DNA of 7,979 nt from a virus (taxonomy: Duplodnaviria; Heunggongvirae; Uroviricota; Caudoviricetes). The position numbers and the translations under genes are program-made. The stretch lies in the IMG/VR virus record IMGVR_UViG_2751185968_000016, one strand, 5' to 3'. This document shows positions 1 to 7,979 of this stretch, piece after piece; position 1 is the stretch's first letter; each line of letters starts with the position of its first letter. Under the pieces are notes generated by a model, which did no database searches, was not told where the DNA came from, and saw nothing but the letters and a program-made list of their open reading frames with translations.

Positions 1-1356
1 TCAAATGACCAGTTTTTTCCATTCCTTACCGCGTGCGTCGTTGTAAATATCGGTCATTTTTTGATTCGAATGGCCCAGCAAAATTTTGGTATCAACCCCC
101 TGCTCTCTGAACAATCGCTCTGATAAAGATCTCTGCTCATGGAAAGAGGGTGGGGTGCCATTAGCACGCCAGTTGTAATCCACAGAATCCCGGGCTTTTT
201 TAAATGCAACGGTTAATGTTGCTGGCTTAACCATCCCGCCGCGCTTAGCTGTCCCTTTCGCGTGATGGTGGTGCAATAGCCACGGACTAAGAACGCAATC
301 GCGGCAGGATGACACCACATCATCTAGGGTGAGATTTAATTTATCGCAACGCAGAGCCAGAGGGATGGCAATCCGGGTTCCTGTTTTTTGCTGTTCGACA
401 TGAAGATAACCATCCCGGATATCCGAAAATTGCATTTTGCAAATATCTGAAAGGCGCTGGCCTGTCATCAGTGCCAGCAGCATACCGCGCTGTAAAAAGT
501 AACCATCCTTTTCCGCTGCGTTATAAATCATCATCCACTCATCAAAAGTCAGTCGCTGTCTTGATATCCGCACCTGCGGTTTTTTTGCCGATTCTGCAGG
601 GTTAAAGCCTGGCGGGACATCGCCCGTTTGCTGAGCTTCCCGGAAAACATCGATCAGTACCTTCCTGAAAATTTGTCCCATTCTGTTATGTCCTCTGGCC
701 TTGTACTCTTCCAGTACTGATACCACATCTTTTACGGTTATGGCATCTAACGGTCTGGTGCCAAAACGTTCATCAAATACCCTGAGAGGGGCCGCTTTCT
801 GTTTCAGCGTGTTGAGTTTGATCTCGCCGTTTTCATATCTTTCCTGTTGAATTTTTCTGTAATTATTCAGAAAAATGGTAACGGTTGATGAACCGCCGGT
901 ATCACTAATAATTTTCTCCTGCAGACTGAGCATTTGTTCCATTTGCTGCCGGGCAAGACGGCTGTTCGCTTCTGCTGCAATAGTTTCTGCCAGTTTCTGG
1001 TCAATACTGCCGAGACCGTGATTTTTGCCTGTTATGGGATGCCTGTAACGCCAGTAAACTTTGTTATTTCTTTTGTCAAAATACGGAGATAATCCCGGAA
1101 CATTGGTTTTATATTTTCGCGGCGCGCCATCTTCCAGTATCCTCTTCAAAGCAGGGTGATCTGTGGCGATCACCTCCGGCTTGTTTACCATTCCGACAAA
1201 GCGAGCTTGCGGATCCACTCGCCAGCGTCTTCCAACTTTTTTGGGGAGAGGAAATATCATTCCGGCTTTAGCGTATTTACTTAACGTACTCGGAGTTGGG
1301 ACCGGTTCACTGAATTCCTCTTTTGCCCACTCAGTGAGCAGAATAAGTCTTGCCAT
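1..1356 (-). CDS. int: Tyrosine recombinase (lambda Int-like integrase), 451 aa, with an in-frame N-terminal excisionase-like HTH segment
   Basis: Complete ORF; the minus-strand stop is at 1-3. Segments align to lambda Int from memory: VYWRYRHPITGKNHGLG, RLTFDEWMMIYNAAE, MTGQRLSDICKMQFSDIRDGYLHVEQQKTGTRIAIPLAL, PPSFHEQRSLSERL, LLGHSNQKMTDIYNDARGKEWKKLVI. Catalytic R, K, H-x-x-R, H and Y positions are all present. The first ~55 residues (LTEWAKEE...GMIFPLPKKVGRRWRVDPQARF) look like an Xis/AlpA-type HTH. Weak Shine-Dalgarno. Confidence 0.9.
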   Translation of the reverse strand: MARLILLTEWAKEEFSEPVPTPSTLSKYAKAGMIFPLPKKVGRRWRVDPQARFVGMVNKPEVIATDHPALKRILEDGAPRKYKTNVPGLSPYFDKRNNKVYWRYRHPITGKNHGLGSIDQKLAETIAAEANSRLARQQMEQMLSLQEKIISDTGGSSTVTIFLNNYRKIQQERYENGEIKLNTLKQKAAPLRVFDERFGTRPLDAITVKDVVSVLEEYKARGHNRMGQIFRKVLIDVFREAQQTGDVPPGFNPAESAKKPQVRISRQRLTFDEWMMIYNAAEKDGYFLQRGMLLALMTGQRLSDICKMQFSDIRDGYLHVEQQKTGTRIAIPLALRCDKLNLTLDDVVSSCRDCVLSPWLLHHHHAKGTAKRGGMVKPATLTVAFKKARDSVDYNWRANGTPPSFHEQRSLSERLFREQGVDTKILLGHSNQKMTDIYNDARGKEWKKLVI

Positions 1357-4526: not shown

Positions 4527-4573
4527 CTTTAAAAAGGGCGGCAGAGCAGTCACGGAGTAAAACTGATACCGCC
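4527..4573 (-). terminator. Rho-independent terminator forming the DicF 3' end
   Basis: GC-rich imperfect stem (GGCGG...CUG/CAG...CCGCC within the DicF 3' half) followed by a U-tract (minus-strand TTTTT at plus 4531-4535). Confidence 0.5.
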
Positions 4574-4588
4574 AAACGTCACCAGAAA
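4536..4588 (-). ncRNA. dicF: DicF small regulatory RNA (Hfq-dependent antisense regulator of ftsZ and other targets)
   Basis: Reverse complement of 4536-4588 reads TTTCTGGTGACGTTTGGCGGTATCAGTTTTACTCCGTGACTGCTCTGCCGCCC, which matches the 53-nt DicF sequence as I remember it. It is followed on the minus strand by a TTTTTAAAG U-tract and lies between the ydfC-like and dicB genes. Confidence 0.85.
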
Positions 4589-6084: not shown

Positions 6085-6128
6085 TTGACTTGAGATTCCT
6101 TGAGTGATTAGCATTGAGAAAACTCAAT
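6085..6128 (+). promoter_or_regulatory. Candidate rightward promoter (pR analogue) with overlapping operator
   Basis: -35 TTGACT (6085-6090), 18-nt spacer, -10 TAGCAT (6109-6114). Inverted repeat TTGAGAAAACTCAA (6114-6127) lies immediately downstream. Further TTGAG half-sites at 6090-6094 and 6100-6104. Confidence 0.4.
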
Positions 6129-6140
6129 ATTGGAGGTGCG

Positions 6141-6368
6141 ATGTTTAAATCAGACGTAATTAATTTTTACGGTACGAAAGCCAAAGTAGCGAAAGCTGCT
6201 GGCGTTGACCCATCTGCTGTTTCTCAATGGCAAGAGCTAGTTCCTGAAGGTCGCGCGATGCGTCTACAGGAGGCATCTGGCGGCGAGCTTCTGTATGATC
6301 CCAAGGTTTATGACGAATATCGTAAGACGAAGCGGGCGGGGCGGTTGAACAATGAAAATCACTCCTGA
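6141..6368 (+). CDS. Cro-like small HTH regulator of the YdaS/DicC family, 75 aa
   Basis: GGAGG Shine-Dalgarno at 6133-6137 and ATG at 6141; the track's 84-aa form starts upstream of the SD. Conserved YdaS/DicC-type core (FYGTKAKVAKAAGVDPSAVSQW). Divergent from the repressor. Confidence 0.75.
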   Translation: MFKSDVINFYGTKAKVAKAAGVDPSAVSQWQELVPEGRAMRLQEASGGELLYDPKVYDEYRKTKRAGRLNNENHS

Positions 6369-6873
6369 ACAGGCTCGTGAGGCTCTGGATGCCTGGATAT
6401 GTCGACCAGGAATGACACAGGAGCAGGCGACGATATTAATCACTGAAGCATTCTGGGCTTTGAAAGAGCGCCCGAACATCGATGTTCAGCGTGTCACAGA
6501 TGAAGGTGGCGCGGTTGATCAGCGAGCGCTTGGCGTTAATCGAGTGAAGATATTCGAACGCTGGAAGGCTATCGACACCAGGGATAAGCGTGAAAAGTTC
6601 ACGGCGCTAGTGCCTGCAATTATGGAGGCTATCCGGATTAATGATTTCAGGTTGTATCGTGAAATTAGTGACGGAAAAAGCATCACGTACATGATCGCCG
6701 GGTTAAACAAAGAATATGGCGATGTGGTGGAGTCCGGACTGCTTTTTGCTGATCCTGCCGTAGTGGATCGTGAAACTGACGAACTTATAGAAAAAGCAAT
6801 TGCTTTCAAACTTGCGTATCGACAGCAATACCAACAAAAAGCTGGATGGAATTATGAGCCTTCTTTTTGCTGA
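6352..6873 (+). CDS. YdaT-like protein, 173 aa (CII-position regulator; sometimes annotated as a toxin)
   Basis: Overlaps the Cro-like stop by 17 nt. ERWKAIDTRDKREKFTALVPAIMEAI resembles the Rac YdaT core as I recall it. Sits at the cII position of lambdoid maps. Confidence 0.7.
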   Translation: MKITPEQAREALDAWICRPGMTQEQATILITEAFWALKERPNIDVQRVTDEGGAVDQRALGVNRVKIFERWKAIDTRDKREKFTALVPAIMEAIRINDFRLYREISDGKSITYMIAGLNKEYGDVVESGLLFADPAVVDRETDELIEKAIAFKLAYRQQYQQKAGWNYEPSFC

Positions 6874-7631
6874 ACGCCCACTGGTTATAAACACACAGCT
6901 TGCGATGAAGATTGGCTTAAATGAAGCCATTGTGTTGCAGCAGTTGCATTACTGGTTGAGAGATACCAATTCCGGCATGGAATGTGATGGTGTTCGCTGG
7001 ATTTACAACACAACGGAACAATGGCTGGAACAGTTCCCATTCTGGTCAGAGTCAACGTTAAAGCGCGCGTTTGCAAGTCTGAAAACGCTGGGGCTCTTGC
7101 GTTGTGAAAAGCTCAATAAATCAAAGCGCGATATGACCAATTTCTACACGATTAACTATGGGAGCGAGCTTTTAGATGATGGCAAATTGAGCGAATCCAT
7201 CGGTTCAAAATGCGCCGCTCCATCAGGTCAAAATGACACGATGGAAGAGGTCAAAATGAAACGCTCCATTGGTTCAAAACGACCCAATGTCATCGGGTCA
7301 AAATGGCCCGATGATCCTACAGAGAATACAACAGAGATTACTACAGAGAATAAAAACACTTTTCGTCCGGAAGCTTCGCAACCGGACCCGCAGACGGCTG
7401 AACAGGATTTTTTAATCCGGCACCCTGGCGCAGTTGTGTTTAGTGCGAAAAAACGCCAGTGGGGTAGCCAGGAGGATCTGGCGTGTGCGCAGTGGATATG
7501 GGGGCGGATCGTGGGTCTCTACGAACAGGCCGCCAGTGATGATGGCGAGATCATGCGACCAAAAGAGCCTAACTGGACTGTCTGGGCCAATGATGTGCGC
7601 ACAATGCGGATGCTGGATGGCAGAAGCCACA
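6854..7631 (+). pseudogene. Replication initiator (lambda O-like replisome organizer), C-terminally truncated by IS insertion
   Basis: The N-terminal domain FAERPLVINTQLAMKIGLNEAIVLQQLHYWL...TLKRAFASLKTLGLL is typical of phage O-type initiators. Iterons lie inside the gene. Homology-independent break at 7631/7632, where an IS terminal inverted repeat begins; the remaining track translation to 7792 is read-through into the IS. Confidence 0.6.
7195..7306. repeat. Five direct iterons (consensus about CATCGGTCAAAATG) at 23-24 bp spacing: candidate prophage replication origin
   Basis: TCAAAA cores at 7205, 7228, 7251, 7274 and 7298. Followed by an A-rich segment with a duplicated TACAGAGAATA (7318-7353). 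Embedded in the O-like gene, as lambda ori is in O. Confidence 0.6.
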
Positions 7632-7671
7632 TGAACCGCTCCGGGTTTCCTGGAGAGTGTTTTATCTGTGA
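7632..7671. repeat. Terminal inverted repeat of the IS3-family element
   Basis: TGAACCGCTCCGGGTTTCCTGGAGAG... begins with the 5'-TG characteristic of IS3-family ends and resembles the IS629/IS1203 end sequence as I recall it. Confidence 0.5.
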
Positions 7672-7673
7672 AC

Positions 7674-7979
7674 TCAGGCTGCCAGATCATCGTTTCCGAT
7701 GGAAGCATAATAAGCTTTTTCTGCTTCTGCCGGAGGGATGTGGCCCAGCCTTTCCAGCAATCGTCGATTATTATACCAGTCCACCCACGTGAGTGTGGCC
7801 AGTTCCACTTCTGCACGGTTTTTCCAGCTCTTACGGTGTATTACCTCCGCTTTGTAAAGACCATTGATGCTCTCCGCCATCGCGTTGTCATACGAGTCGC
7901 CTGTACTTCCTGTTGATGCCAGTAATCCGGCTTCCTTAAGCCGCTGTGTGTAGGCCAGCGATACATACTGAGAACCTTT
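7674..7979 (-). CDS. IS3-family transposase OrfB, C-terminal 101 aa (5' end outside the window)
   Basis: Minus-strand frame is open from the window end to the stop at 7674-7676: KGSQYVSLAYTQRLKEAGLLASTGSTGDSYDNAMAESINGLYKAEVIH...NNRRLLERLGH..., containing the DDE-domain YDNA..AES block typical of IS3-family OrfB. Confidence 0.85.
   Translation of the reverse strand, partial: KGSQYVSLAYTQRLKEAGLLASTGSTGDSYDNAMAESINGLYKAEVIHRKSWKNRAEVELATLTWVDWYNNRRLLERLGHIPPAEAEKAYYASIGNDDLAA

Follow-up and report, generated by a model that had tools for sequence, protein, structure and literature searches.

A candidate replication origin inside the initiator gene of a lambdoid Escherichia coli prophage, with a 12-nt repeat common to unrelated iteron families

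Introduction

Phage lambda has its replication origin inside gene O, where four iterons are accompanied by a high-AT region of 39 bp and by a palindrome. The iterons annotated in the lambda record share a TCAAAA centre and are spaced by 20, 24 and 23 nt; an A-rich region follows them, and then the palindrome TTCGTCAGAGAATTCTGGCGAA. Dimers of O bind each iteron, and the O-some stresses and partly unwinds the AT-rich region (PMC7466680). The in-frame deletions ori95 and ori96, which affect the AT-rich region, are origin mutations, and their O alleles complement O amber mutants in trans (PMC6022878). They set a direct precedent for a function of the DNA that is housed in a linker which the protein can spare.

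The initiator genes of the RepA_N type also carry iterons in the middle of the gene, and in RepA_N plasmids the origin is situated inside repA. Among lambdoid prophages, the origins of the Stx phages 933W and P27 have six iteron positions, the distal ones being weaker (PMC7466680); these origins are close relatives of that of lambda, with lambda-type iterons, O and P. In oriC (13-mers L, M and R) and in RK2 oriV (four 13-mers), the segment that melts beside the initiator sites consists of tandem repeats of about 12-13 nt. One strand of this DNA unwinding element (DUE) is bound specifically, as single-stranded DNA, by the initiator, and the known DUE repeats vary between replicons (PMC10797057).

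Here we analyse a 7,979-nt stretch of a tailed-phage record (IMGVR_UViG_2751185968_000016), hereafter the window, in which a first-pass annotation made from the sequence had pointed to direct repeats and an adjacent A-rich segment inside an O-like gene as a candidate prophage origin.

Results

An interrupted initiator gene

The window is a lambdoid E. coli prophage with the gene order integrase, excisionase, 823-aa exonuclease, DicF RNA, CI-like repressor, Cro, YdaT-family protein and initiator ORF, the YdaT-family gene occupying the cII position (Table 1). The initiator ORF begins at ATG 6854, and the intact gene, as found in E. coli 55989, has 321 codons. Up to position 7631 the sequence is 99.9% identical to uninterrupted prophages, after which it continues as IS3-family, IS1203-like DNA; the RefSeq annotation beneath the matches to this part reads 'IS3-like element IS1203 family transposase'. 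The initiator encoded in the window lacks its last 62 residues, among them the tail and the best-conserved portion of the lambda-O-like domain. Since the insertion cuts the initiator at codon 259, the origin, intact in cis, is probably silent unless an initiator of matching specificity is supplied in trans. Compared with the propagated phage HannyBb, its cis elements show 3 differences in 223 nt. Supply in trans by another prophage of like specificity is plausible, because some E. coli genomes contain up to four matches to the origin query. Of 5426 complete E. coli genomes, 1875 contain a match that covers 80% or more of this 251-nt query (7150-7400), and the origin module also serves real phages, being carried by HannyBb and PhiR42_1.

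Table 1. Coordinates of the features of the prophage locus within the window
Feature	Position	Strand	Basis
Candidate promoter of the pR type, 5' of cro, the YdaT-like gene and the initiator gene	6085-6114	+	Consensus scan, 9/12 matches; gene order
O-like initiator gene, first 259 codons	6854-7631	+	Translation compared with the intact E. coli 55989 copy; PHROG 391; lambda O alignment; AF2
Decayed sixth (distal) iteron, GATGATGGCAAATTGAGCGAATC	7175-7197	+	23 nt 5' of iteron 1 and in phase with it
Five iterons, starting at 7198, 7221, 7244, 7267 and 7291	7198-7313	+	Repeat search; Tandem Repeats Finder; core scan
Three 12-nt units, ACAGAGAATACA, ACAGAGATTACT and ACAGAGAATAAA, plus AACAC; putative DNA unwinding element	7319-7359	+
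GC-rich inverted repeat GTCCGG-(11 nt)-CCGGAC	7365-7387	+	Hairpin in DNA fold; directly 3' of the array
End of IS3-family element (IS1203/IS629-like), interrupting the initiator gene	7632-7979	-	Identity break at 7631; RefSeq annotation

The consensus match of the pR-like promoter candidate is not above shuffle expectation, and the scan of the window for promoters and terminators gave results at or below that expectation. Transcription from this weakly supported promoter would run through the origin, as in lambda. DnaA boxes in the window are not above chance, which gives no indication that the origin depends on DnaA. No Rfam family matches the origin region, so that a structured RNA is not the explanation.

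A mosaic initiator with a predicted disordered linker

The initiator matches the family 'replication initiation O-like' (PHROG 391; E = 3.1e-92) over its full length, residues 17-321 aligning with positions 11-298 of the 298-position profile, PHROGs being the one family collection that recognised it, and the repeats do lie inside the coding sequence of an O-like initiator, as the first-pass annotation had it. Residues 147-294 align with residues 135-270 of lambda O at 34% identity over 148 residues (E = 3e-27), and BLASTP found no similarity to lambda O in the N-terminal 110 residues. Neither Pfam nor NCBIfam holds a family for the initiator, in the case of Pfam at any E up to 10. The Pfam family Phage_rep_O (PF04492), against which lambda O scores 5.7e-36, has no match in the window initiator; with neither a Pfam match nor similarity to the N-terminus of lambda O, a Phage_rep_O domain is ruled out, and the N-domain belongs to a family that is absent from Pfam. 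The initiator is a mosaic, in which an N-domain unlike that of lambda O is joined to a C-terminal half with homology to the half of lambda O that interacts with P. Its N-terminal region shares 40-52% identity with the N-domain of a protein named 'DnaD-like helicase loader' in the Staphylococcus phage fPfSau02. The gene of this S. aureus phage has the same iterons, with 34 of 36 nt identical to the window across two adjacent copies.

In a low-confidence AF2 model (mean pLDDT 55), built with 14 close homologues, residues 14-100 form an N-domain of the helix-and-wing type, and a helical C-domain begins at residue ~183. The intervening residues 102-174, with pLDDT below 50 and no secondary structure, are predicted to form a disordered linker. 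These residues are encoded by nt 7157-7375, so that the predicted linker takes in the iterons and the 12-nt array, together with the left arm and the loop of the hairpin described below; only the final 12 nt of that hairpin lie outside it. We accordingly divide the protein into an N-terminal winged-helix-like domain (residues 1-105), the linker and the C-terminal lambda-O-like domain, which is truncated in the window. A Foldseek comparison of the model with the PDB gave weak matches (best E 0.03), the top ones being winged-helix proteins led by the N-domains of RepA_N initiators. The best of these, the RepA proteins of pSK41 and pTZ2162 (PDB 4pql, 4pt7), match the low-confidence model at E 0.03-0.07 and a TM score of 0.45 normalised to the target, and have no sequence similarity to it. 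We call the N-domain 'winged-helix-like' and assign it no closer fold.

The intact initiator (WP_000054487.1) ends in ...SEPDTEIPPGFRG, the C-terminal tail of E. coli DnaT, its own C-terminal tail being EPDTEIPPGFRG. A sequence search of the PDB returned only this DnaT-like tail and a match to YteR, which we judged spurious. No P-, DnaC- or DnaB-like gene follows the initiator gene in E. coli 55989 or in phage HannyBb; in both, the next gene encodes a DUF977 (Ren-like) protein.

Palindromic iterons in phase

Repeat search and Tandem Repeats Finder agree on five iterons, each 23 nt long and spaced by 23, 23, 23 and 24 nt, just as the first-pass annotation had described them (five direct repeats at 23-24 bp). 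The repeats occupy codons 108-154 of the 321-codon gene. The 7979-nt window contains exactly five matches to the 10-nt core GKTCAAAAYG, all of them in phase and all between 7203 and 7305; when one mismatch is allowed, three more scattered sites appear, the shuffle mean being 3.2. Every iteron is a hyphenated palindrome, with the core placed inside GGTCA-AAA-TGACC and the arms extended. The best of these palindromes, at 7290-7314, reads TCATCGGGTCA-AAA-TGGCCCGATGA, and its arms are 91% complementary. Where the window has a decayed sixth iteron (Table 1), its relatives have GAGGTCAAAGTGAC, a good copy.

The repeats had also been said to encode a repeated SIGSK motif. This holds for copies 1, 4 and 5 but fails for copies 2 and 3, the encoded peptides being, in order, SIGSK, PSGQN, EEVKM, SIGSK and VIGSK. 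With a period of 23 nt, the five copies start in frames 2, 1, 0, 2 and 2; counting the decayed copy, which starts in frame 0, all three frames are used. Because copies 2 and 3 sit in other frames, we read the iterons as repeats of DNA and not of peptide. Across related loci (n = 32), the iteron cores are conserved and the arms and flanking codons vary. By analogy with lambda, the iterons would be binding sites for dimers of the initiator N-domain.

A 12-nt array of low duplex stability and a GC-rich hairpin

Three 12-nt units (ACAGAGAWTAMW) span 7319-7354 on the 3' side of the iterons, and Tandem Repeats Finder reports a 12-nt array at 7319-7352. The exact motif ACAGAGAWTA is found at 7319, 7331 and 7343 only, a count reached in 0 of 200 shuffles. 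The segment is indeed A-rich (7320-7359: GC 0.325, AT skew +0.63), as the earlier reading stated, but the sequence described there as duplicated is present as three units, not two. No other 36-bp duplex in the gene is as unstable as the array: its nearest-neighbour dG is -39.8 kcal/mol, the mean over 36-bp segments being -49.0 (sd 3.5). A very stable stretch (dG -57.3) comes directly after it. When folded as single-stranded DNA, the array is unstructured. By analogy with the high-AT region of ori-lambda, the array is likely to be the DNA unwinding element of this locus.

The GC-rich inverted repeat directly 3' of the array has counterparts elsewhere: across 40 families, a stem with at least 8 matches is found at 30% of loci, compared with 4.8% of control windows from the same genes (p = 1.6e-5). 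Both this inverted repeat and the decayed sixth iteron had been missed by the first-pass annotation. No second iteron array or AT-rich repeat was found elsewhere in the 7979-nt window.

Iteron sequence follows the N-domain

When representatives of 40 iteron families are ranked by the similarity of their N-domain to that of the window protein, the iteron sequence changes stepwise. N-domains 61-75% identical are accompanied by iterons of the GGTCAAAATG type, those at 55-60% by GGGCAAATTGCCC or GGTCAACTTGTCC, and those at 40-53% by related variants; below ~34% identity, the iterons are unrelated. The C-domains fall into 10 clusters that assort independently of iteron type. At one locus the C-domain is 60% identical and the N-domain has no similarity, and at another the N-domain is 75% identical and the C-domain has no similarity. 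Such stepwise co-variation, with C-domains assorting on their own, is what one would expect of an N-domain that reads the iterons. The first-pass annotation had named a lack of conservation as DNA in homologues as grounds for its own refutation; in this comparison the repeats are conserved as DNA, and their sequence tracks the N-domain, so that the refutation fails.

One 12-nt unit beside unrelated iterons

A 22-nt pattern from the array matched at least 120 IMG/VR contigs, and blastn with 48 nt found 98 GenBank phage records, in which the match sits inside a replication-initiator gene in every annotated record among the 60 listed of the 98. The hosts of these phages include Acinetobacter, Staphylococcus, Bacillus, Klebsiella, E. 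coli, Erwinia, Pseudomonas, Burkholderia and Geobacillus. An exact 31-nt pattern matched at least 50 species genomes, two of them discounted, with matches in Enterobacterales, Vibrionales, Marinomonas, Acinetobacter, Arcobacter, many Bacillota and one Chloroflexota MAG. A Veillonella MAG contig identical to the E. coli prophage was discarded as probably mis-binned, and a Segatella match was discarded because it lies in a Thr/Glu-rich repeat protein without iterons; a giant-virus MAG, in which the repeat is read in another frame and iterons are absent (locus L019), was also excluded.

The 12-nt unit is thus present in phages or prophages of Gammaproteobacteria, Campylobacterota and Bacillota and in one Chloroflexota genome. 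The array sits immediately 3' of iterons at about 100 distinct loci, and these iterons belong to about 40 unrelated sequence families. The counts are no random sample, since many of the loci are close relatives and the scans of the collections give lower bounds. The period of the iterons is mostly 23 nt and otherwise 22 or 24, and relatives have two to five 12-nt units. We found no description of the unit, or of the iteron type of the window, in the literature searched, and an earlier account may exist in reviews of phage replication modules. The 12-nt unit is possibly a new conserved unwinding element.

Constraint on the DNA of the array

The array could be conserved for the peptide that it encodes. 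A back-translated peptide pattern, 36,864 times more permissive than the DNA pattern, recovered essentially the same loci, and 113 of 120 among the matches listed have the exact DNA version. Codon choice within the arrays is strongly skewed when one representative per family is counted: GAG is used 99 times and GAA 4 times, compared with 314 and 461 elsewhere in the same ORFs, and ACA/ACT 196 times and ACC/ACG 0 times, compared with 311 and 257. In 49 units free of the constraint imposed by the search pattern, there is hardly any variation at positions 3, 6 and 9, which are third in their codons, and the site that varies most is position 8, a second codon position. Two origin-only copies lie outside any initiator ORF. 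One is carried by the 8.4-kb Bacillus plasmids of the pBSG3 family, which have three iterons at 23 nt and three units with no N-domain upstream; the other, IMG/VR locus L043, has its array next to a long ORF that we take to be a tail tape-measure gene.

The reading frame of the array (Thr-Glu-Ile/Asn-Thr) is nevertheless constant at 128 of 130 viral and 50 of 50 genomic loci among the matches listed, from which it follows that shared ancestry of the joint or the requirement for a benign linker also plays a part. A role of the peptide, or simple shared ancestry of the joint, is possible. We propose that the 12-nt unit acts through its specific sequence and not just through its AT content.

Discussion

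In its anatomy, the locus resembles ori-lambda closely. Both lie in the middle of an initiator gene, between the parts that code for the DNA-binding domain and the C-terminal domain; both have iterons that are hyphenated palindromes with a TCAAAA centre, spaced by 20-24 bp; and in both the coding strand is A-rich on the 3' side of the iterons and an inverted repeat comes next, so that order and polarity match. The GC-rich inverted repeat of the window is placed like the palindrome to the right of the AT-rich region of lambda, and the C-terminal halves of the two initiators are homologous. The resemblance to lambda ori within gene O that had been noted at the outset therefore holds at the level of sequence for location, order and strand polarity. 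However, the N-domain of the window initiator is not of the Phage_rep_O family, its five or six iterons differ in sequence from those of lambda, and its unwinding segment would consist of three defined 12-nt units instead of a generic A-tract. The module also differs from the lambda O/P pair in having no P gene after the initiator, which itself has a DnaT-like tail. With the Stx-phage origins the locus has in common the lambdoid prophage context and the number of iteron positions, but its N-domain and iteron type are unrelated to theirs.

Based on this comparison, region 7175-7387 is very probably the cis-acting replication origin of the lambdoid prophage, placed in the linker-coding middle of its own initiator gene and resembling ori-lambda in its build. 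The evidence consists of anatomy, homology, conservation, co-variation and duplex stability, from which we infer binding, melting and helicase recruitment. In the mechanism that we envisage, dimers of the N-terminal winged-helix domain would bind the five or six palindromic iterons. The 23-bp spacing would set the bound dimers roughly on one face of the helix, and together with the A-tract centres it would favour a wrapped complex, or 'O-some'. The resulting strain would melt the adjacent and least stable segment, namely the three 12-nt units, with the GC-rich inverted repeat bounding the bubble. The separated 12-nt units may then be kept as single-stranded DNA by the initiator oligomer, in a manner comparable to that of plasmid Rep proteins and of DnaA on DUE repeats. 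Lastly, the lambda-O-like C-domain and the DnaT-like tail would recruit the host helicase, a step that we assign to them because no P-like loader gene is present; that recruitment proceeds via host primosome or loader proteins is a guess.

Two other readings of the 23-nt repeats deserve consideration. That they are a by-product of a repeated SIGSK-like peptide, with no DNA function, is barely credible: three of the five copies do encode S/V-IGSK, but the two copies in other frames encode PSGQN and EEVKM, the region is predicted to be disordered, the DNA is better conserved than the protein in the Staphylococcus phage, and each copy is palindromic, which is a property of DNA. It is also conceivable, though very unlikely, that the repeats bind the initiator or another phage protein for the purpose of control (autoregulation, handcuffing or exclusion of related phages) and that the true origin is elsewhere. 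Plasmid iterons serve in copy-number control as well (PMC10797057), and the origin-only copies on plasmids could be decoys. Nonetheless, the locus has the full set of parts in the lambda order, from iterons through easily melted repeats to a GC-rich hairpin, and the window offers neither another iteron array or AT-rich repeat nor DnaA boxes above chance from which replication might start instead.

The 12-nt array invites a different alternative, in which it is an in-frame recombination joint, or a Thr/Glu-rich linker peptide, between exchangeable N- and C-domains, its low melting stability being incidental and any AT-rich DNA serving equally well. At least 10 C-domain clusters are joined to N-domains exactly at the array, the constant frame is what in-frame exchange requires, and the array falls within the predicted disordered linker. 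We still regard this account as unlikely, since synonymous sites are fixed while the most variable position is non-synonymous, and the array is kept in two contexts outside an initiator ORF. Homogenisation by recombination is, in addition, an improbable source of the same DNA in Bacillota and Enterobacterales, and the equivalent segment of lambda is needed in cis and not in the protein (PMC6022878). As a tentative proposal, which we hold to be clearly better than the joint or linker but would stop short of calling probable, ACAGAGAnTAMW in two to five copies 3' of iterons may be the site at which, in a sequence-specific manner, DNA is unwound or the helicase enters in a very large superfamily of origins from phages, prophages and some plasmids. 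It would serve in at least three or four phyla with any iteron specificity or C-domain, and would probably be read as single-stranded DNA, in a 12-nt register, by a conserved surface of the winged-helix N-domain oligomer or by a universal host factor such as a DnaB-type helicase. The array resembles the 13-mers of oriC and RK2 in unit length and position, and differs from them in that ACAGAGAnTAMW is common to about 40 iteron families across phyla; single-strand binding, established for the 13-mers, is here our proposal. Compared with the known DUE repeats, one unit common to so many replicons is a new feature.

As another lambda-type origin inside an initiator gene, the locus taken alone is ordinary. 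The interest of the result resides in the conservation of the 12-nt unit beside unrelated iterons, which crosses phyla and is independent of codons. The comparisons outline a modular origin plan common to phages of Gram-negative and Gram-positive hosts, with a winged-helix N-domain, its own iterons with a period of 22-24 nt, an invariant 12-nt array, a hairpin and an exchangeable C-domain. For the prophage itself, a function can be given to a gene annotated as 'hypothetical protein', and locating its origin helps to judge which prophages still replicate. If our proposal for the 12-nt unit is true, the unit would be the phage counterpart of the DnaA-trios or of the DUE 13-mers, and would provide a simple one-line motif for predicting phage origins in sequence data. 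It would also give a testable handle on how O-type and DnaD-type initiators open DNA, and would be a candidate decoy for engineered phage resistance, origin-only copies being already present on Bacillus plasmids.

The initiator tail and the interrupted window copy

The intact O-like initiator of E. coli 55989 carries a C-terminal tail that closely matches that of the E. coli primosomal protein DnaT (VNTVSEPDSQIPPGFRG). The initiator has a DnaT match in NCBIfam (E 0.006) and matches the DnaT chains 2ru8, 6aep and 9zbt in the PDB. The window copy is devoid of the DnaT-like tail because an IS element interrupts the initiator; its open reading frame reads through to 7792, and the part past the IS junction is IS-derived.

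Features discussed in the text, with their coordinates
Feature	Location	Strand	DNA	Remark
DicF small RNA	4536-4587	-	window	Rfam RF00039, 76.7 bits
YdaT-family 'toxin' protein gene	6352-6873	+	window	sits in cII position
GATC site	7313-7316		window	between last iteron and first 12-nt unit
IS3-family element end, IS1203/IS629-like	7632-7979	-	window	cuts initiator after codon 259
Initiator C-terminal tail	8958-9017		L001, E. coli 55989	intact gene; ends in VNHISEPDTEIPPGFRG
Iteron array + 12-nt array	11090-11400		L043, IMG/VR contig	outside any full-length initiator gene
Origin-only module	745-845		L141, Bacillus plasmid pBSG3	3 x CCTACAGGGAAA, then 3 x 12-nt unit

Upstream, the 3' end of the YdaT-family gene and the initiator start overlap by 20 nt; phage annotators label the encoded protein CII-like. 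DicF is likewise present in the dicB-dicF regions that other defective lambdoid prophages carry. Within the 823-aa exonuclease gene, positions 2259-2365 hold tandem repeats whose period of 21 nt equals seven codons.

Probable origin elements in other contexts

Several enterobacterial iteron families that are unrelated to one another (cgatcttACAGAG, cgatcctACAGAG) also have a GATC at the junction between iterons and 12-nt units; this site may be a target of Dam or SeqA. On the L043 contig, the arrays adjoin a 1036-aa open reading frame, taken to be a putative tail tape-measure gene, and another 12-nt array, inverted, lies ~150 nt downstream of the first; these arrays may constitute a second origin.

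On pBSG3, the three repeats are spaced by 23 nt, with the 12-nt units 3' of them, and the module is located upstream of the plasmid rep gene in apparently non-coding DNA. At least five further near-identical plasmids of this 8.4-kb type carry the same module, which could be a captured phage origin serving as a decoy or hitch-hiking device. A contig from a public MAG binned as Veillonella parvula (L180) matches the replication origin of the window's E. coli prophage, save for one additional 12-nt unit, over the ~195 nt compared (iterons, array and hairpin start); it probably belongs to E. coli and was mis-binned.

Helicase loading

No P- or DnaC-like gene was found downstream of the intact initiator in E. 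coli 55989. The DnaT-like tail may give the phage access to the loading machinery of its host.
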